Assembly: GCA_963662545.2 (NCBI GenBank)
Contig: CAXXLL010000002.1
Coordinates: forward strand, 1,056,001-1,120,000
Length of the DNA: 64,000 nt
Reading direction: 5' to 3'
From: Gammaproteobacteria bacterium
Lineage (GTDB): Bacteria; Pseudomonadota; Gammaproteobacteria; Ga0077536
The notes beneath the pieces were generated by a model. That model had not been told where the DNA came from. It was given only the letters and a program-made list of their open reading frames with translations, and ran no database searches. Of the stretch, positions 50,577-60,280 are shown piece after piece. The position numbers and the translations under genes were made by a program. Each line of letters begins with the position of its first letter. Within the stretch, counting starts at the first letter, position 1.

Positions 50577-50678
50577 CGTGTTGAGCCCTTGGTGACACTT
50601 CGCTCGTGCGCTTTGGATATCGAATGTAGCGGGGGAACGGCGTCATTCCAAGGCTTGTAGTCTATTTTAGTGGCTTAA

Positions 50679-50840
50679 GGAATCTCTGAGTAAGTCATGG
50701 CACACGTGCCTTGCGCCTGAAATCGTGCAGCTCGGCGTTACGAAGCTTGCCAATAGTCCCCGCTATTGCCTGCGATTCGTGCCTTGATCTGCACGATTTC
50801 ATGCACCATTCACATGCACCATGACTTATTCAGAGGTTCC
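50679..50840. mobile_element. 162-bp MITE, family A, copy 3
   Basis: GGAATCTCTGAGTAAGTCATGG ... CCATGACTTATTCAGAGGTTCC, preceded by TTAA. Confidence 0.85.
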
Positions 50841-50880
50841 CCAATTTGCAATCGACGGCGCGAGTGGTTGAACTGGCGGC

Positions 50881-52023: not shown

Positions 52024-52108
52024 GGCGACGCCCACCGCACCGTGCGGGCGTCCATCACGGTGGGGGATCCGCGCGGTTTGCTATAGTGAAATCGACGCTA
52101 CCGTTCAC

Positions 52109-52271
52109 CTAGTGTGCTGTCCCGTGAAAAAGTTGCGTAAGTCGCGCCGGATTTATTGTCGCTGGCAAGGCGCAACGACGCCGTGTAGCGGGCTCTACAC
52201 AAGGAGGAGCGCGGCTGGTGGCAACTAAAGACCAGCGAATTATGAAAGTTTTTCACGGGACAGGACACTAG
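52109..52271. mobile_element. 163-bp MITE, family C, CTAG-bounded
   Basis: CTAGTGTGCTGTCCCGTGAAAAA / TTTTTCACGGGACAGGACACTAG, 23-bp IR with 1 mismatch. Confidence 0.82.
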
Positions 52272-52280
52272 GAGAGATCC

Positions 52281-52712
52281 ATGAAACTCGACGCCGCCGT
52301 GGTGACCCTGCTCATCGCGGTTCATCATGCCATCGCTTACATTCACGGCGGCGCCCATACCGATCTCGCCATCGTCATGTCGGTATTTCAGAACGCGTTC
52401 ATCTATTTCGTGATCCTCCTGGTACCGCTGGCGGGCGCCGTTCTTACCTGGATGAGCAGGCCCAGAATCGGCCTGTGGGCCGTGATCATCGGCATGGCGG
52501 GGGCCCTCATCTTTGGCGTCACCCATCACTACATGCTCGTATCCCCGGACCATATTGCTCACCTGCCGGCGGCAACGCCATACGTCCACGACACTTTCAT
52601 CTGGACGGCGGGCGCCATGGCGATGGTGGAAGGCGCGTGCGCCATGCTGGCTGCATATTTTCTCGGGCGTCGTTATCGCGACGCGACCGCCGCCTGGCCG
52701 ACGGGAGATTAG
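52281..52712 (+). CDS. Hypothetical 4-TM membrane protein
   Basis: AGGAGA RBS, hydrophobic helices with His clusters (HHAIAYIHG, HHY..PDHI). Confidence 0.78.
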   Translation: MKLDAAVVTLLIAVHHAIAYIHGGAHTDLAIVMSVFQNAFIYFVILLVPLAGAVLTWMSRPRIGLWAVIIGMAGALIFGVTHHYMLVSPDHIAHLPAATPYVHDTFIWTAGAMAMVEGACAMLAAYFLGRRYRDATAAWPTGD

Positions 52713-52820
52713 AGGTAAAAACTTGGACTCGTTCTTACAGATTGGCATCTTGGATACGACCTGACCTGATAAGTACCGTAGCATAAACACAGCACTCCGC
52801 TGTCGGGCTTTACGAGATTA

Positions 52821-52892
52821 GGGTCCGCTATACCGCCGTGAGCAGCCACGCCATGCTGCACTGCACCAGTTCGTAGTCGACCCTGAACGGAC
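52821..52892. repeat. Partial, divergent copy of the cassette-array repeat
   Basis: GGTCCGCT...AGCAGCC, TGCTGCACTGC and CGACCCTGAACGGAC match sub-sites of the 133-bp repeat. Confidence 0.6.
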
Positions 52893-52942
52893 ATCGACCC
52901 TCGACCTTCAACGGATTCGCTTCGCGGTAAGAACCAGCTTAA

Positions 52943-53467
52943 CTAACTCACGGGCATATCCGGTCTAGGACTTGTTCCAGCGAATATCGATTCGCCTGGA
53001 GGCGCGTCAAGAAGCAATTCCACTTCCTTTTGGAAATTAGCGCTAAACCACGCTTTTCTCTGTTTCCACCAAACTCTTCCGCTGGGCGTATTGAGTACTC
53101 CCGGGACCATTACCCGGTAAGTATCTTCCATGTCATCTGGGTAGTTTCTCTGCCGAATGTCGGCAAACGCTTGTTCTATAGCTTGAAGCCAAATGAGTGT
53201 CGCCAGATCAAATCGATATCGTTCTACCGGCGTGAAATTCTCGAAACGGTCGAGGTCCGCAAAGCCGTTGAGGATGATCTCAGCGATCTCTGGATCATTC
53301 GCTAAGACTGTAATAGCTGCTGCATGATCGTGGGCGGTTGCTCGTGCGTTCGCTCTGCGCGTTTCAACTGTGTGCTTTTTGATCTGGAAACCGACGTACA
53401 GCAGCGAAAAAATGACGCCAACAGCGCTAATAATCTCGGCCACTCCACTGATAGCATCCCAATTCAC
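52943..53467 (-). CDS. Hypothetical protein with one N-terminal TM helix (cassette gene 1)
   Basis: MNWDAISGVAEIISAVGVIFSLLYVGFQI, GGGAGAGG RBS, lower GC than the core genes. Confidence 0.8.
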   Translation of the reverse strand: MNWDAISGVAEIISAVGVIFSLLYVGFQIKKHTVETRRANARATAHDHAAAITVLANDPEIAEIILNGFADLDRFENFTPVERYRFDLATLIWLQAIEQAFADIRQRNYPDDMEDTYRVMVPGVLNTPSGRVWWKQRKAWFSANFQKEVELLLDAPPGESIFAGTSPRPDMPVS

Positions 53468-53534
53468 CTTTGCCTCTCCCGCTGAATAAACGATGAATCA
53501 GGATAGCGAATTCCCTCATGTGGGACGACCATTG

Positions 53535-53657
53535 CTGACCGACTCCCGCCGTGTTCTCTCAACTCGATGCTTAACGCAACTCGACGGCCGCTTATGAGCG
53601 CATTGCAGACGTAACCTAGAAAGGTGCTGCACTGCCGCGAGGGGGCCGCTGACGACC
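53535..53657. repeat. ~133-bp cassette-array repeat, copy B (split by IS1182; remainder 55343-55358)
   Basis: Collinear with 56785-56919 and 57518-57650. Confidence 0.85.
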
Positions 53658-55342
53658 CAGAGTGTGTGAAAACTCGGAATGAAGAGGAATCACGTCGAGA
53701 ACTCCTCGTCAGACGCAACGCGGCGCGGTTACGACGGCCGCGCTCGCGGTCCAATGCGATCGGTTAGTTAATGGAACATTCCTTAGAACGGCCCCAGAAG
53801 CCGGCAGTGAAGCCGTGGATCAGGGAGTTTTCGAGGCCACAGAGGGTCTCATGCCGTCATCGCTTCGATGAGCGTAGCGACACCCAGTAGATTCATCACG
53901 CGTTTCATGTTGTAAGCGAGCACGTGCAGACTCATTTCCGTACCAACGTGTTTCAGCGTGCGCATCTGGAAGTGGGTCGAACCCATCCAGGATTTGATCG
54001 TGCCAAATGGATGCTCGACCGTCTCTCGGCGGACACGCATAGGGTCAGGTTCACGATCCAATCGCGCCTGCACCGCTTCAACAACCGCTTCATGTTCCCA
54101 ACGGCTGACGCGCCGGTATCGACCCGTTGTGCATTTAGATTTGATCGGGCAGCGGGGACACGCCGAACTCCAGTAGCGCCGGATCTGCTTGCCTTTCTCC
54201 ACTCGGGTGAACCGGTAAATCAGTCGCTCACCGGCCGGGCATTCATACGCATCCTCTTCGGGTTGGTAAATGAAGTCGCGCTTGCCAAACAAGCCCTTCG
54301 CCTGGTTACCCGAGGTCTGCGGTTTCGGCAGATAGGTCGTGATGCCGGCTTTAGCGCACGCCAAGATCTCTTCGCCACTGAAGTACCCGCGATCCGCAAC
54401 GACGGTCAACTCCTTCTTATCCAGCGCCTCTTTGGCTTTCTCCGACATGTTCGACAGTTGCGCCCGGTCATGACCTACGTTCGTCACTTCATGTGCCACA
54501 ATCAGATGACTCTTCGTGTCGACCGCCGTCTGCACGTTGTACCCCACCATGCCGCTGCCACGGCCGCTCGTCGCCATCGAGCGCGCGTCCGGGTCCGTCA
54601 GTGAGACCTGATGGTCCGGCGTCTCCTCGAGCCGTACCTCGAGCTTTTTTAGGCGGCCTATCTCTTCCTTCAGTACCTCGATCTTGTCCTTCAAACGCTG
54701 CGACTTGTCACCTGACACCGCACGCTCCTGGCGGTCGGCACTTGCAATTTCCGCCAGGTACCGCTCAACGCTCTCGTCAATCTGCTGCAACCGACGTTTC
54801 AGCTTCGCCTTCGTGAAGTTCCGGTCACGGTTGTTTACCGCTTTGAACTTGCTGCCATCTATCGCCACGAAGGCTTCCGAAAACAGCTGCAGCTTACGGC
54901 ACAGCATCACGAACTCCCGGCATACCAGACGAATGGCGTCACCGTTATCTTTGCGGAAATCGGCAATGGTCTTGAAATCAGGCGCCAGACGACCCGTCAG
55001 CCACATCAGTTCCACGTTCCGCTGCGCCTCCCGTTCCAGGCGACGGCTCGATTGAACCCGGTTCAGGTAACCGTAGATATAGAGCTTCAGCATCGTCGCC
55101 GGGTGATACCCCGGTCGACCCGTCTCATGCGCATCGGTTCTGAAACTCAGACCTGACAGATCCAACTCATCGACGAACACATCGATGACCCGCACCGCAC
55201 TCTCCTCAGCGACATAATCGTCCAGACACTCGGGAAACAGCGTTGTTTGGCGGCGGTCCGCGCCTTCAATGAACCCGCTCATCAACGACTCCCCAGGACC
55301 GAAAGAGTGATCTTATCTGATGCAGAGTTTTCACACACTCTG
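53658..55342 (-). mobile_element. IS1182-family insertion sequence
   Basis: Perfect 18-bp IR CAGAGTGTGTGAAAACTC. 4-bp TSD GACC at 53654-53657 and 55343-55346. Confidence 0.95.
53849..55282 (-). CDS. IS1182 transposase
   Basis: GRPGYHPATMLKLYIYGY, SSRRLERE, PDFKTIADFR, AIDGSKF, TDPDAR, ADRGY, VEHPFGTIK. Confidence 0.95.
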   Translation of the reverse strand: MSGFIEGADRRQTTLFPECLDDYVAEESAVRVIDVFVDELDLSGLSFRTDAHETGRPGYHPATMLKLYIYGYLNRVQSSRRLEREAQRNVELMWLTGRLAPDFKTIADFRKDNGDAIRLVCREFVMLCRKLQLFSEAFVAIDGSKFKAVNNRDRNFTKAKLKRRLQQIDESVERYLAEIASADRQERAVSGDKSQRLKDKIEVLKEEIGRLKKLEVRLEETPDHQVSLTDPDARSMATSGRGSGMVGYNVQTAVDTKSHLIVAHEVTNVGHDRAQLSNMSEKAKEALDKKELTVVADRGYFSGEEILACAKAGITTYLPKPQTSGNQAKGLFGKRDFIYQPEEDAYECPAGERLIYRFTRVEKGKQIRRYWSSACPRCPIKSKCTTGRYRRVSRWEHEAVVEAVQARLDREPDPMRVRRETVEHPFGTIKSWMGSTHFQMRTLKHVGTEMSLHVLAYNMKRVMNLLGVATLIEAMTA

Positions 55343-55372
55343 GACCCATAGCCGACATCGCGATTCTCCTTA

Positions 55373-56719
55373 CTATGCGTCCCGCACCCCGAGAAGCTCC
55401 TTGGCCGCCCGCATGCCGGACCAATGGGCTTGGCCAACGGTGCTGTTGACCAAATAATCGCCAGCGAATGTGACCCGCTCCAACGGTCCAAGGTCGCGAA
55501 ATCGTTTCAACGCTTTGAGATAACCTTTGGGTCTTCGCGCTATCGCCAGGTCATTGCGCTGGATGTATTGGTCAACAATGATCGCATCGCGAATCTGTGG
55601 GAATGCCCTCGTCACTTCTTTCCAACCGTCTTCTAGCACAGCGTCCGACGACCACGCCTGGGTCTCCTTGCTGCCCCAGTTCTTCCACTGGGCGTAGACG
55701 AGCGTTCGCCCTTCACCACCAGGGCTGAACGCGACATCGGCAACTACCCTGTACCCGTCTACCGTCGGCAGCAAAACCCGCTCGGGCAGATCGTCCCGGA
55801 GCGGTTCGTCCAACAGATACCACGCGTTATGGTGGCCCGAATACGAGACACCCTCAAAGAACTGACGCCGTTCTTCGTCAATGCCGGGGAATAAGTTTAG
55901 AACCAGAGTCCCGGGCACTGCGATGACCGCGGCGTCGGCGGTGATCGTTTCGACCGCGCCGTGCCGGTTCACATCAACTTCAATATGACTTTCGAGCACC
56001 CGCAGTTGTTGGGCGATGACATGGAAGTTCAACTGCGTGCCTTCGTCGCGAACGAAATGTTCGCCGAGCGAGCGGGTCAGCTGGCCGACGCCGCGCTCCT
56101 CGAACGCCCACCAATGTTCGGCACCCCAGGTAAGGCGGCTCGCGACCAACCACAGCAGCCAGGCGAGCGAATAATCATCCTCTCCATAACCGCAAAAAAG
56201 CGACAGGCAGGGATCAAGGAAATAATCGACGAACTTTGGCGAATGTGCCCGAAAGTACTCGCACGCGTTCTGATCGTCGAATTTCGCTGCGGTCACCGGA
56301 TCCCGCGGGTCGCACGCAGCCATCTGTTTGAGCATTCGCGGCACAACTTTACCCAAAGCCAGTTTCTCTTTGACGGGGATGACATCGGATTTGATCGCTT
56401 CGAGAATATCGAAGTCGTCGAAGGATACGATACCTTTGTCCTTCAGTAGAACGTGGTAGCGTGGTCGGCTTTCAAGAAATTCTGTGCGCGGCAACGTGTC
56501 GTAGATGCCGAGTGCGGTCGCTAATTCGACCAGGTTTTCTTCCGAGCCGATGAATCCCTCAGCGCCTCGCTGCAGATACATCCCGTTCCATTTGAATGCG
56601 CGACACCGACCCCCAGCATCTTCGTTCTTCTCCAGGATCACGACTTCATGATCGCTCTCCCGCAATGTCCAAGCGGCCGACATGCCAGCCATGCCGCCAC
56701 CGATGACAATGATTTTCAT
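55373..56719 (-). CDS. FAD-dependent oxidoreductase, amine oxidase / protoporphyrinogen oxidase fold (cassette gene 2)
   Basis: IVIGGGMAGMSAA, EKNEDAGGR, FAGDYL. Confidence 0.88.
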   Translation of the reverse strand: MKIIVIGGGMAGMSAAWTLRESDHEVVILEKNEDAGGRCRAFKWNGMYLQRGAEGFIGSEENLVELATALGIYDTLPRTEFLESRPRYHVLLKDKGIVSFDDFDILEAIKSDVIPVKEKLALGKVVPRMLKQMAACDPRDPVTAAKFDDQNACEYFRAHSPKFVDYFLDPCLSLFCGYGEDDYSLAWLLWLVASRLTWGAEHWWAFEERGVGQLTRSLGEHFVRDEGTQLNFHVIAQQLRVLESHIEVDVNRHGAVETITADAAVIAVPGTLVLNLFPGIDEERRQFFEGVSYSGHHNAWYLLDEPLRDDLPERVLLPTVDGYRVVADVAFSPGGEGRTLVYAQWKNWGSKETQAWSSDAVLEDGWKEVTRAFPQIRDAIIVDQYIQRNDLAIARRPKGYLKALKRFRDLGPLERVTFAGDYLVNSTVGQAHWSGMRAAKELLGVRDA

Positions 56720-56784
56720 AGTCGCCCCATCGGTTCGTTTAAACGCCGGAGACTATACATCAGTAAGGCGGGCGGTGGCCGCTC

Positions 56785-56919
56785 CTGGCCGACTGCCGTC
56801 GTCATTGGTTAACACGTCAGTGAACGCAACTCCACGACCGCTATGGAGCGCATTGCAGACCGAATCTAGAACAGTGCTGCACTGCCGCGATGAGGCGGCT
56901 GACGGCGGGGAAAGCGGAC
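56785..56919. repeat. ~133-bp cassette-array repeat, copy C
   Basis: CTGGCCGAC...GAGCGCATTGCAGAC...GTGCTGCACTGCCGCGA...GCTGACG...GCGGAC. Confidence 0.85.
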
Positions 56920-56995
56920 CTACGGCTGGCAATCATCGCTGACAGTAACCCGAGCCGCCGGCATGCCTCGCGCTCGGCGCATGTGGTACTCGCCG

Positions 56996-57370
56996 TCACG
57001 CCTTCTCTGTGTGTCGGACGTTGTACATGAAGTACAAACTAATCAGCGTGCCTGTCACGAGAAAGATCACTACAGCTTCGATCCACCAAGGAAAAGTAAC
57101 AAGCGATATTTCGTCGTAAACAGATTGCTCACGGGCACGGAGCAGCACCCACGCTTTGACATGTACAAACGTAGTTACGCCAAACATTGAGGCAGAAAGC
57201 AGATAAACGAACGATATCATCATGCATTGGTACCGTGACAATGCTCTGCCGACGAAATATGAAACTGTGAGATAAGCAAAAGTTAGAGAAAGCCATACTC
57301 CAAGATATGTCGCCGCGACATCGGCGATGTCGGTCAATGCACCAATAACTCCAATTCCTACTTCAGTCAT
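56996..57370 (-). CDS. Hypothetical small membrane protein (cassette gene 3)
   Basis: About 3 TM helices, low GC, bounded by repeats C and D. Confidence 0.78.
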   Translation of the reverse strand: MTEVGIGVIGALTDIADVAATYLGVWLSLTFAYLTVSYFVGRALSRYQCMMISFVYLLSASMFGVTTFVHVKAWVLLRAREQSVYDEISLVTFPWWIEAVVIFLVTGTLISLYFMYNVRHTEKA

Positions 57371-57517
57371 CTCTTCATTCCCCCATAGTTAAACCAACAG
57401 GAGTAAGGATATAATTGATGTCAGGGCCAGTGGGTGGCACGCTCTTATGTCTCAAATCCTCGTTTCCGTAAAACCCAAATGAATACAAAGCTGTTCCAGA
57501 AGGGCGACCGGCCGTTT

Positions 57518-57650
57518 CTGGCCGACTATCGCCGTGCTCCCTCCACTCAATTCTTGAAGCAATCCGACGACTGCTTACGAGGGTACTGCAGACGTAATCT
57601 CTAGCTGTGCTGCACTGCGGCGATTCGGCCGCTGACGACCCACTACGGAC
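57518..57650. repeat. ~133-bp cassette-array repeat, copy D
   Basis: CTGGCCGAC...TGCAGACGTAA...GTGCTGCACTGC...GCCGCTGACGACCC...CGGAC. Confidence 0.85.
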
Positions 57651-57919
57651 CGTCGCAGTGGCTAATATGCGTTCAGCTATGCTCAATTAATGGTCAATTT
57701 CCAGACCGCTATCCTATTTATAGAAATTGGCGGCGACCCATAATTGCTACTCACCGGATGTTTGACGTGAAGTTGGGGGCAAAGGGGCGTTAATGCCGCC
57801 TATACTTTCCGTATAAATCGTATTTGGCTTTGCATTTATGGAAGGCGGTGGATACCAAACTGATTAAGTAAGCTATTTATATCGACGGTAAAATAAGTCT
57901 CATCTGAGCCCATATAAAC

Positions 57920-59362
57920 TTATGTATCGAATACTTCCAGATCAGCAAAAGTAATTTCCTCACCTTCTTCGTACATTAGAAGGTCCCCGGCGATAATGTG
58001 GGCGGCGCCTTTTAAGCATTCTAGTAAAGAGGGGTGTGGAAATATTGATTCCAGCAGGTAGGTATACGGCAACTCTCGCTCAATAATGATCGAGGCGGCA
58101 CTGACAATACCGTCAGCTTCAGGGCCCACCACGCGCACACCGAGAATTCGGTCATCACCTTTGGGCCCAACAATCAACTTGACGAAACCGGCCGCCGGTT
58201 GAATGGCGTGGGCGCGATGATTGCGCGCATAGGGGTATTTACCTATCCGCACCTCGCCGTACTTTTCCCGGGCATAGGTCTCATTAACCCCAGCGCCTGC
58301 CAGCATGGGCACGGTAAAAATGATATAGGGGATGTGGTTCATGCTCTGTGGATAATCTTGGTTGAGGATATGTGCAGCTGCGCAACGCCCCTCAGCTTCG
58401 GCAACATGAACCAGTGCCAAGTCGCTAGGTATATTTCGATTGCCGATGTCGCCTACCGCATAGATGTGCGCTACCGAGGAGCGAGTATCCAGGCCCGTGG
58501 GTATATAGCCTCGCTGGTCCAATTCGACACCGCTAGCTTCAATATTCATGGTGCCCGAGCAGGGCATGCGGCCTATGGCTAGTAATACCGTTTCGGTTTC
58601 AATCTCACCGCTGGATAATGTGGTTTTTACGCTGGTGTCCAGCAGTTCCATGCTCTGATAGCGGCTGCAGGCTATCACCTTGATTCCGCGTTTTTCAAAA
58701 GCGTTAGCCACAAAGTGGCTGAGATCTGGGTCTTCATTTGCCATGATGACCTGCTGGGTATCGACCAGGTGAACCTGGGTGCCCACGGCGTTGAACATAC
58801 TGGCGAATTCACAACCGATGATGCCGGCTCCTAGAATCAGCATCGAGCTTGGTGTGGTGCTTAGCTGGTTAACCTCATCAGAGGTAAGTACGCGCCGGCC
58901 ATCGATTTCCATGCCAGGCAGCACGCGGGGGCAGGTGCCGGTGGCGATGATAATGTTGTCAGCGCTGTAGCGGGTCCCATTGACTTCGACTGTATGGGGG
59001 TCAATAAAGCGTCCGCGCCCCTTGATGACTTCAATGCCCAAGCGCTGCAAGCGCTTTTCAAGCATTTTGGTGAGGTTTGCCGCCGATTCGGCAACCCCCT
59101 GTTGCAGTGTTTCGATTTTCAGTGGCTTGAGTTCGCCGAAGACGTGCTTGCGTAATCGAGTGTGCAAGTACTCACGGCTAATTTCAAAGCCTGCCTTGGA
59201 GCGAAAAGCTCCATCGATGCCGTAGCCCATCAGTGGGCCCTCATTAATGATGATGGCCTTCCTGCCGGCCAGTGCGAGCTTGCTTGCGGCGCTGATTCCG
59301 CCGGGGCCGCCGCCTATTACTAGTACATCGCAATGAATTGCCGTCATGGTTTTTTGTTCCAT
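57920..59362 (-). CDS. Dihydrolipoyl-dehydrogenase-like flavoprotein lacking the redox CxxxxC
   Basis: GGGPGG, IATG, LGAGIIGCEFA, IYAVGD, HPSLLE. LMGYGIDGAFRSK replaces the GGTCxxxGCIPSK motif. Confidence 0.88.
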   Translation of the reverse strand: MEQKTMTAIHCDVLVIGGGPGGISAASKLALAGRKAIIINEGPLMGYGIDGAFRSKAGFEISREYLHTRLRKHVFGELKPLKIETLQQGVAESAANLTKMLEKRLQRLGIEVIKGRGRFIDPHTVEVNGTRYSADNIIIATGTCPRVLPGMEIDGRRVLTSDEVNQLSTTPSSMLILGAGIIGCEFASMFNAVGTQVHLVDTQQVIMANEDPDLSHFVANAFEKRGIKVIACSRYQSMELLDTSVKTTLSSGEIETETVLLAIGRMPCSGTMNIEASGVELDQRGYIPTGLDTRSSVAHIYAVGDIGNRNIPSDLALVHVAEAEGRCAAAHILNQDYPQSMNHIPYIIFTVPMLAGAGVNETYAREKYGEVRIGKYPYARNHRAHAIQPAAGFVKLIVGPKGDDRILGVRVVGPEADGIVSAASIIIERELPYTYLLESIFPHPSLLECLKGAAHIIAGDLLMYEEGEEITFADLEVFDT

Positions 59363-59374
59363 CTTGGCGGAAGA

Positions 59375-60006
59375 GAATAAGCCGAATAAACACCCTTTTC
59401 CGCAATTCCACCGAGTATCGTCAGGTCATCAAACCGTCGTCAACCTGCGATTCGACGCGGTGTTGGCCTGAATTGAGCCCCTGAGCCGGCAGTAATTCTG
59501 TACATCAGGGCGATTTTTCGACGGTTCCGAGCGTCGGCACGACAGCGACTCTGCCGCGTCGCTGAGTGTCGCAGCCGCTGGTCTTACGCGCGTGGTTGCG
59601 CGTGTATCAGGCGAACCAGCGGGCCTGGGGCGGCGCCCGACACGGTGGCAAACGCGAGGCAGCTGTTGAAGTGTTTTTGCGGTCGAGGTGGGTGAGGATC
59701 TTCTCGATCACCACAGGGTCTTCGATGCAGGCGATGATCCTGACGTGGCCGCCGCAGCTCTTGCAGGTCTCGATGTCGATGTTGAAGACCCGCTTCAGGC
59801 GCTGTGCCCAGGTCGCCGCTCTTGCGCATCCCTGCGCCCGCGGCATTAGTGCATCCATGCACGTCATGGCGGCCCGGCGTTCGGCGGGCGTTAGGTCTTC
59901 AGTCGCCGCCGCGTTGGCTTTGTTGCCCTTGCCCCGTTTGGCCGGCGTCACCCGCGCACGATGCGCGCTGTTGGGGGCGAACACGCCGTGGAAGCGGGTG
60001 AGGTTG
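59375..60006 (-). mobile_element. IS91/ISCR-family remnant: transposase 3' end plus oriIS-like end
   Basis: NLTRFHGVFAPNS..R..VTP, WAQRLKRVFNIDIETC..CGG...IIACIEDPVVIEKILTHL..RAPP (59607-60006). GGAAAAGGGTGTTTATTCGGCTTATTC on the minus strand at ~59375-59401. Confidence 0.85.
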
Positions 60007-60280
60007 GCAGGTTTCTTTTTTGGCTCACCATGTCCGCAGTTGGCCGGTTGCTGCCGAAATCGTCACTGCGAAGTTTGACTGGAATGCCTTCATTAGCGGA
60101 CATCAATTCACGTGTTGGAACTGTCCGAGCAAGTTTGAACTCCGCTTTTAGTCTGTCAGATCGAGTCTGAATTTTAAAAATCAGGGGGATCGCGGTGATG
60201 GAGGTCCGCAGGCTTTCGAGCGGTATTCAAGCTTCGCGCGCAAGCGGGCGAACCTGAATACCCAATTTCGGATTGCGCCG

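Follow-up and report, generated by a model that had tools for sequence, protein, structure and literature searches.

A clustered repeat of three dyads as a candidate recombination site between gene cassettes in a genus of sponge-associated bacteria

Integrons are, to our knowledge, the only well-understood system that hoards single promoterless genes in ordered arrays, and all current integron detection that we know of is built on the integrase gene intI and the fold of the attC site. A 64,000-nucleotide stretch of a gammaproteobacterial genome (the window; C2:1056001-1120000, C2 being the contig) raises the question of whether genes can also be arrayed at sites of another kind. Near one end of the window, single genes alternate with a repeat of ~135 bp that carries three short imperfect palindromes (dyads). 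A preliminary description of this DNA had taken the repeat for the recombination site of a gene-capture and shuffling system. On the sequence comparisons reported here the question is evenly poised: the repeat may be a composite recombination site of an integron-like cassette system with its enzyme acting in trans, and the case for this is about as strong as the case against. We know of no described system with such a site architecture, and in the part of the literature that a full-text search reaches, no description of the repeat or of a three-dyad cassette array other than attC turned up.

The source genome (G000) is a 5.58-Mb assembly of three contigs and was compared with two other species of the same genus, G001 and G002. 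Because the G001 assembly is 89% complete and that of G002 lies in 150 contigs, from which mobile genes may be missing as unassembled, the absence of a gene from either is weak evidence. The repeat was sought with an nhmmer profile built from the three copies in the window and iterated once, at a cutoff of E<=0.01. These three copies had been recognized from the start as collinear, and a repeat finder returns them as one 134-nt direct repeat (53526-53659, 56776-56909 and 57509-57642; 72-77% identity). The genome-wide profile scan that the preliminary description had proposed yielded 121 copies, 76 of them full length, in oriented clusters and far beyond chance. Identical stretches occur on two contigs (the contig-end sequences C2:2589905-2591134 and C3:8971-10200; the 10-kb array segments C2:2578-2588 kb and C3:910-919 kb), and assembly duplicates may account for some array copies.

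Each ~135-bp copy consists of three 24-25-bp dyads, A, B and C, built on the half-site GnCCGCT, with dyad centres ~53-60 bp apart. Dyad A has the consensus GTCCGCT-ctt-GGCC-gag-AGCCGCC and is separated from dyad B by a variable stretch of ~30 nt that splits into subfamilies. Dyad B (GACCGCT-tac-GAGC-gcat-TGCAGAC) is followed by ..GTGCTGCACTGCCGCGA-nnn- ahead of dyad C, which reads GGCCGCT-gac-GACC-can-AGCGGAC (GGCCGCTGACGACCCAnAGCGGAC); the sequence TGCTGCACTGC forms a conserved core between B and C. The three palindromes and the invariant core of the window copies thus recur in the logos of the whole family. The left arms (G-n-C-C-G-C-T) are conserved at 87-100% per position in B and C and at 52-65% in A, and all right arms are imperfect complements of GnCCGCT. 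For complementarity, the arms of B score 4.0/7 and those of C 3.9/7, versus 0.25-3.4 in slid controls, dyad A being the weaker one. The outermost arms of a copy, GTCCGCT and AGCGGAC, are exactly complementary, and in copies whose C has GGCGGCT the inner arms match exactly as well. Dyads A and C therefore look like hybrid junctions of the attL/attR type, which would derive from the palindromes GTCCGCT..AGCGGAC and GGCsGCT..AGCCGCC.

In Mantel tests on the distances between copies, the two halves of the A-B stretch are correlated (r 0.34, p 0.002) and the 5' flank is weakly correlated with the left block of that stretch (r 0.13, p 0.002), while blocks on opposite sides of dyad B (r -0.08 to 0.06) or of the TGCTGCACTGC core, and the 3' flank, are uncorrelated (r -0.08 to 0.09 overall). 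A search for structured RNA in the repeat gave no Rfam match at E<=1 and no consensus structure in alifold, and mutual information reflected subfamily structure only.

The repeat is neither scattered nor randomly oriented. Altogether 113 of the 121 copies lie in clusters, with about 8 singletons. The largest cluster (C2:613-749 kb) extends over 136 kb and has all 39 copies one way, an arrangement with a probability of 2^-38 under random orientation. Strand is equally uniform at C3:887-931 kb (17/17), in two clusters of nine (9/9 each), in one of four (4/4) and in three of three (3/3 each); another cluster has 11 of 12 copies on one strand, and two clusters are mixed. The earlier judgment that the repeat is not CRISPR (clustered regularly interspaced short palindromic repeats) is supported, and the repeat is no ordinary scattered element of the REP (repetitive extragenic palindromic) or MITE (miniature inverted-repeat transposable element) kind. 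GC skew suggests that C2 and C3 are parts of one chromosome with its origin near C3:1.72 Mb and its dif site at C2:2180004. An orientation linked to replication, such as insertion into single-stranded DNA or of the HUH type would give, was considered and is ruled out, as plus and minus clusters lie in one positive-skew domain of C2.

Orientation is a property of the repeat and not of the genes between its copies. The four minus-strand genes of the window array, described as co-oriented, are real open reading frames (ORFs), but their shared direction is local, since ORFs between repeats run either way across the genome (88 kb against the repeat direction and 78 kb along it). In content the cassettes resemble integron cargo: 14 of 20 sampled cassette ORFs have no Pfam family. 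The protein of the first window cassette has BLASTP matches to 16 cassette ORFs within a divergent 18-member paralogue family (20-35% identity; 110-216 aa, mostly 150-200 aa) that occupies about one cassette in five. These paralogues begin MNW(D/E)AIGAI.., have one transmembrane helix and a C-terminal WW motif, and some of them, as well as one Atlas cluster, bear a weak likeness to DUF6082 (by Pfam in the paralogues).

The family is restricted in range. BLAST detects it in both remaining species of the genus but not in the 22 further genomes of the family or in the 16 further families of the class that were searched. In G001 a single contig carries at least 14 copies, all oriented alike, and in G002 three copies follow one another. 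A 20-base pattern scan of genome contigs returned three contigs, one of them from G001 and all with full copies by the profile; the same scan of metagenome contigs returned four, of which two hold true copies and two are chance matches. Public runs that contain window sequence are sponge, sediment and marine metagenomes and runs of coded organisms, and in one run from another study a contig that covers 55322-57602 agrees in order with the window.

The evidence that cassettes have moved comes from an all-against-all comparison of the segments between repeats, together with manual alignments, in which one and the same module is found in different arrays with different neighbours. A 2.1-kb module is shared in this way at 95.7% identity. 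In one module alignment homology stops directly past GGCCGACTGC, and in another the first shared letters are AGCGGTC and the last CGACCC. The third cassette of the window recurs in a different array of G001 (contig C14) at 88-97% identity, where it begins with AAAGCGGAC directly behind a sequence like the left end element of the window array (E_L, described below) and stops at ..CTGGC|CGAC.

Boundaries were called with a change-point script that compared 96 oriented units with each other and with 17 foreign loci, in place of BLAST-only tallies of break points, which are confounded by the flanks of insertion sequences (IS). Ten of 22 right boundaries fall at profile positions 7-9, directly after TTGGCCG in the centre of dyad A, and 13 of 19 left boundaries fall at positions 120-135, a range that opens in the centre of dyad C and closes where AGCGG begins; several rows in these tallies are the same event seen through duplicated segments of G000 or overlapping loci, and two rows at position 8 are MITE ends. 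Counted conservatively, three cassettes are shared across species with both ends at the A and C points. These are C2:1627053-1628831 versus G001 (boundaries 124 and 9), C2:2584869-2588135 (also C3:11970-13512) versus G002 (121 and 9), and the window segment between copies 2 and 3 versus G001 (132 and 7). In all three the repeat bodies differ on both sides. Judged from these boundaries and from the Mantel tests, the ~113-bp body between the centres of A and C is not inherited with either adjoining cassette.

The same two centres are targets of mobile elements. In 40 of the 121 copies an IS or MITE sits at one point in the centre of C, GACGACC|C.., and the inserted elements, IS1182-family IS and a 162-bp MITE among them, can be sorted into four or five families whose ends are related (..TGTGTGAAAAC). 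In 13 of the 121 a related IS or MITE end lies directly against GGCC in the centre of A. The IS of the window (IS_A) has one orientation relative to the repeat in 12 cases and the other in 2. The junctions of the shared cassettes and the targeting of the same centres by IS and MITEs together favour sequence-specific exchange at the centres of A and C.

As a composite recombination site, the repeat would be broken and rejoined at the centres of its outer dyads A and C, and perhaps of B. A cassette would then begin in the middle of one dyad C, end in the middle of the dyad A that comes next, and bring with it the arms AGCGGAC and GTCCGCT, which are exact complements; the ~113-bp body would assort independently of the cassettes, and the cuts would be made by a sequence-specific enzyme in trans. 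A fuller scheme is possible but more doubtful: cassettes and ~113-bp linkers would alternate at attL/attR-like dyads, be swapped within and between species by a putative sequence-specific enzyme or host protein, and form a second, integrase-independent cassette system whose arrays ride on carriers bounded by terminal inverted repeats (TIRs) and on tRNA islands.

Several observations, on the junctions and on the enzyme, weigh against a dedicated site. Dyad A is weakly symmetric (2.8/7 versus 1.0-2.2 in slid controls). Other boundaries lie at positions 14, 58, 66, 72, 78, 88, 108 and 112-119; two of these are in dyad B and some are another MITE inserted in the body, and a spread outside A and C would also be expected from homologous exchange. 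Event counts are small, with several events coming from duplicated segments, and few cassette junctions free of a body were found. No excision product, circular or deleted form, or strain-level gain or loss was seen. The four public runs compared consist of contigs and are uninformative on this point; joints in them such as 55359>56777 and 53658>57565 have sides that lie for 26-40 letters within repeated sequence and give no evidence of excision. G002 lacks the array at its only orthologous locus (C50:15852-15872), where a gap of ~7.8 kb corresponds to window positions 52439-60270. This gap is bounded by two GCGGGCG words (window 52431-52438 and 60233-60240) and cuts a membrane-protein ORF (52281-52712). 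By these signs the gap arose by a deletion between microhomologies, one that exceeds the element in width, and not by site-specific excision, and because it is bounded by microhomology and takes flanking host sequence with it, it is silent on site-specific loss.

The preliminary description had also ascribed the exchange to a tyrosine recombinase or HUH enzyme in trans, and this part is not supported: no tyrosine, serine or HUH recombinase tracks the repeat in the three repeat-bearing species. G002 shows two tyrosine recombinases only, both XerC/D-like. A search for serine recombinases came up empty in both G001 and G002, and G000 has one broken Resolvase gene. The dif site of G000 is canonical and AT-rich (2 mismatches to the E. 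coli consensus) and is the sole dif-like site at <=7 mismatches, and the dyads are GC-rich and unrelated to it. Three individual candidates were set aside. A ~200-aa recombinase beside two arrays is confined within the genus to G000. P4-type integrases are widespread in the family, relatives that lack the repeat included, and none turned up in G002. The Xer-like recombinases within clusters are the first genes of IS91-family elements, ahead of a Y2/Zn_Tnp_IS91 transposase; no match to this IS91-linked tyrosine recombinase reached E<=1e-40 in G001 or G002, and three genomes that lack the repeat have it.

Elements of this IS91 family with the Xer-like gene lie at C3:6584-9421, C3:920803-923640, C2:623520-627523 and C2:1616900-1619000. 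Their right end is ..CCCTTAAC, followed by AnAGCGGACAT-like sequence, and a site like dyad A, in inverted orientation, lies in the region of their left end. These elements may share their sites with the repeat.

The rival that survives best, though we consider it unlikely, is that the repeat is an intergenic element like REP or BIME (bacterial interspersed mosaic element) that has no dedicated enzyme and is shuffled by homologous recombination or gene conversion, so that the junctions are edges of homology. This would agree with the missing recombinase, with the break points at several other positions inside the repeat, and with a family that is intergenic and, like REP families, genus-specific. 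Insertion sequences reportedly home on REP sequences (PMC1525189), and the 40 and 13 IS or MITE insertions in C and A would fit such targeting. However, one strand throughout 136 kb and in eight further clusters is unexpected for REP-like elements, as is the clustering that leaves so few singletons, and none of the 7 Y1_Tnp loci (of the REP-associated tyrosine transposase, or RAYT, type) in the genome is at a repeat copy. The right junctions of the three cross-species cassettes also lie within 3 nt of TTGGCCG, and the ~15 nt that are moderately conserved on the cassette side of TTGGCCG are short for homologous exchange.

An improbable alternative is that the ~113-bp body is itself a miniature transposable element inserted in a 24-bp palindromic target, GTCCGCT-N10-AGCGGAC, which would make A and C the junctions of target and element. 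The body does have inverted ends of ~10 bp (GAGAGCCGCC and GGCGGCTGAC), the arms on the cassette side (GTCCGCT and AGCGGAC) complement each other exactly, and the body-side arms AGCCGCC and GGCsGCT are near-complements. IS and MITEs with similar first bases (CAGAG.. versus GAGAG..) enter the same centres with a 4-bp duplication, and bodies that are not co-inherited with cassettes would be expected. The 4-mers that flank the body differ, however (GGCC on the left in 89-94% and GACC on the right in 86-100%), which does not look like a target duplication; bodies in an array are uniformly oriented despite the palindromic target, and no long autonomous version with the same ends was seen. Empty targets are few: the pattern GTCCGCT-N10-AGCGGAC has 60 matches versus 10 in the control, and almost all of these are dyads of known copies. 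The pattern GGCSGCT...AGCSGCC is not enriched (188 versus 187 in the control). Finally, G000 has 17 full copies of IS1182-family transposase genes, whereas G001 has a single one, interrupted by a stop, and a search of G002 gave none. The gene-capture proposal of the preliminary description stands in that cassettes occur in different arrays and species with junctions at dyad centres; homologous recombination and a MITE-like origin of the body remain its rivals.

The idea that the repeats are unusual attC sites of a resident integron integrase, and their arrays CALINs (clusters of attC sites lacking an integrase), is close to excluded, although the arrays consist of small, mostly unknown genes parted by a ~130-bp repeat, the genome has two intI genes (462 and 461 bits versus a cutoff of 265), and insertion sequences that target attC are known and count as a likeness. 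The genome has a canonical integron with which the repeat can be compared. It occupies C2:985000-997700, with intI at C2:996723 and, upstream of this gene, at least 11 attC sites between minus-strand cassettes; its intI is the closest to the window array and is ~112 kb off. The canonical attC is a 122-nt repeat that reads CCTAACG...GTTAGGC, and at least 39 sites were located (C2:985-995 kb, C3:1917-1949 kb, C3:1524816 close to the second intI, and a few more in small groups), all of them outside every cluster of the three-dyad repeat. The canonical site folds into a nearly perfect hairpin (z -9.7 and -8.1), whereas copies 2 and 3 of the repeat give z -1.4 to -2.7, and a long-range helix that folding predicts in copy 3 does not persist in the family (52% Watson-Crick paired over 73 distinct copies, no covariation). 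The repeat has no RYYYAAC/GTTRRRY pair, the cassettes do not retain their own repeat, gene orientation is mixed, and no intI over the cutoff was found in the repeat-bearing G001 and G002. The earlier claim that the repeat is not attC is thus upheld.

Two observations concern the canonical sites themselves. The attC cluster at C3:1917000-1950000 contains at least 22 sites and is separated by 390 kb from the second intI, whose own upstream side has a single attC at 2.3 kb. At C2:1631268-1631330 a truncated copy of the three-dyad repeat is followed within ~30 nt by GCTTGTTAGGTGGCG, which resembles the GTTRRRY end of a canonical attC, and this may be a junction of both kinds of array.

The window array is laid out as follows. 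It begins with the left end element E_L (52709..52886, plus strand), which starts with the TIR-like sequence TGTAAAAACTTGGACTCG; its inner ~80 nt are a compact repeat with an A-like dyad, TGCTGCACTGC and a C-like ...GTCGACCC. The first cassette gene (52943..53467, minus strand) encodes a 174-aa protein with an N-terminal transmembrane helix and no Pfam match. The left part of repeat copy 1 (53526..53657, plus strand; C2:1109536-1109657, 108.5 bits) includes A and B whole, and of dyad C the left half as far as GACGACC. An IS1182-family IS of 1685 bp with 24-nt inverted ends follows in the centre of dyad C (53658..55342, minus strand). Its transposase (53849-55285) belongs to the IS1182 family (NF033551, 466 bits versus a cutoff of 270), its 4-bp target duplication is GACC at 53654-53657 and 55343-55346, and it has at least 13 near-identical copies genome-wide. 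The right part of copy 1 (55343..55365, plus strand), GACC-CAT-AGCCGAC, is the right half of dyad C and restores the uninterrupted consensus GACGACCCAnAGCGGAC.

The second cassette gene (55373..56719, minus strand) encodes a flavin amine oxidase-like oxidoreductase (Pfam Amino_oxidase, 5.4e-28), for which every NCBIfam match is under its cutoff. Repeat copy 2 (56777..56919, plus strand) has dyad A at 56777-56800 (C2:1112777-1112800), B at 56836-56860, then TGCTGCACTGC, and C at 56894-56919, the last being a variant with a 12-nt spacer. The third cassette gene (56996..57370, minus strand) encodes a 124-aa membrane protein with no Pfam or NCBIfam match. Copy 3 (57509..57650, plus strand) ends with dyad C at 57627-57650. 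The last module (57651..60017, minus strand) contains a small repeat, an oxidoreductase gene and a remnant of an ISCR (insertion sequence common region) element. The gene (57920-59362) encodes a pyridine nucleotide-disulphide oxidoreductase (Pfam Pyr_redox_2). The remnant of the ISCR-family transposase occupies ~59377-60006, where the ORF 59607-59984 matches the last 110 residues (NF052416, 86.5 bits). The remnant belongs to the last module as cargo and was copied along with it: a 99.6% duplicate of 57587-60046 lies at C3:930693-933152, where the C3:887-931 kb array ends. It had been noted correctly, and no tie to the repeat is shown. An 83-bp element at 57725-57807 has 91.6% copies at C3:9627-9708, beside an IS91-family element, and at C2:2590397-2590478. 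The array closes with the right end element E_R (~60018..60177, plus strand), which begins with the dyad-A-like GTCCGCAGTTGGCCGG and contains TAGCGGACATC.

No Phage_integrase match lies inside the 64-kb window, as the preliminary description had found. The lower GC content that it ascribed to the array is confined to 57-58 kb (46%) and 53-54 kb (53%); values are otherwise 54-58%, in a genome of ~58%. The partial copies that it placed at the array edges are real but are not plain repeat copies: they are pieces of the two distinct end elements. A sensitive BLAST search found eight copies of E_L and six of E_R in the genome, with correctly ordered and oriented pairs around arrays of 1.3, 1.9, 4.7, 7.5 and 33 kb. 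The terminus of E_R is an inverted copy of the E_L terminus (..GAGTCTGAnTTTTTA), and the window array lies inside a TIR-bounded carrier that extends from E_L to E_R. The 4.7-kb unit (C2:246924-251603) is flanked on either side by CGTTAGA, a direct repeat of 7 bp. Three of the five E_L copies first examined have an IS or MITE at one point, GTCGACC|C. Two other arrays begin 1.5-2 kb past P4-type integrase genes that adjoin tRNA-Met and tRNA-Lys.

Two families of MITE-like elements lie to the left of the array. The first (50668-50845) is ~170 bp long with 55-nt inverted arms and has at least 27 genome copies at 84-92% identity; the orthologous site of G002 is without it, and the flanks abut there (C50:17465/17463). 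The second (52108-52272) is ~163 bp long, with 41-nt inverted arms that begin TCACCTAGTGTGCTGTCCCG; at least 6 copies occur in G000, and G001 and G002 have dozens. One element of this second family sits inside a repeat body at CTAG (C2:710864-712137).

What the repeat means depends on which reading holds. For every attC site, this one genome has about three of the three-dyad junctions (121 versus at least 39), and tools of the IntegronFinder type should overlook them. If the repeats are true recombination sites, genes would be captured by a second route, one met to date in a single genus of bacteria associated with sponges; a double junction at which cassettes and linkers are sorted apart would follow a site logic that is new, and the search for the missing enzyme would have a definite object. 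If one of the plainer readings holds, the repeat still shows cleanly how several IS and MITE families home on one 24-bp dyad centre.

Each of several known systems resembles the array in some respects. ISCR and IS91 elements can capture genes, but the sole ISCR remnant here is within the last module, captured DNA is not beside oriIS or terIS, and the IS91-family elements with a tyrosine recombinase are cargo that was not found in G001 or G002. Integron mobilization units are integrons bounded by MITEs. The window array similarly lies between the inverted termini of E_L and E_R, and one such unit elsewhere has a 7-bp direct repeat; however, E_L and E_R look like halves of one element and not like a MITE pair, and the array between them is not an integron. 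REP and BIME sequences that serve as IS targets share with the repeat its genus-specific, intergenic and palindromic nature and the fact that several IS and MITE families strike it at a fixed position, but the repeat is clustered and strand-uniform, has no RAYT link and marks the ends of mobile modules.

The res site of Tn3-family transposons has three subsites, each bound by a dimer, over ~120 bp, with a gene for a serine resolvase (or TnpI/TnpS) adjoining and one copy per transposon. The repeat likewise has three imperfect dyads over ~130 bp, but these are near-equal, no resolvase is nearby, there are 121 copies, and exchange is apparent at the two outer sites. The pdif modules and other Xer-dependent elements (in Acinetobacter plasmids, and integrative mobile elements exploiting Xer, or IMEX) are gene modules between short dyad sites that have no recombinase of their own. 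Modules between dyads are common to both, and a host enzyme in trans would explain the absent recombinase; the dyads here are unlike dif with its 11-6-11 layout, however, and whereas pdif sites alternate in orientation, the repeat copies all run one way.

Another likeness is to integron arrays, sedentary chromosomal integrons and CALINs, which also contain many small unknown genes, a one-way repeat of ~120-135 bp, cassettes common to different arrays and species, and hot spots for insertion sequences. Unlike integrons, the arrays described here have no adjoining intI, no R boxes and no long hairpin, their sites consist of three equal dyads instead of one imperfect palindrome, and their genes lie in either direction. 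An integron cassette keeps its own attC through a single crossover at R', whereas the breaks seen here are at both ends of the repeat, which does not accompany its cassette.

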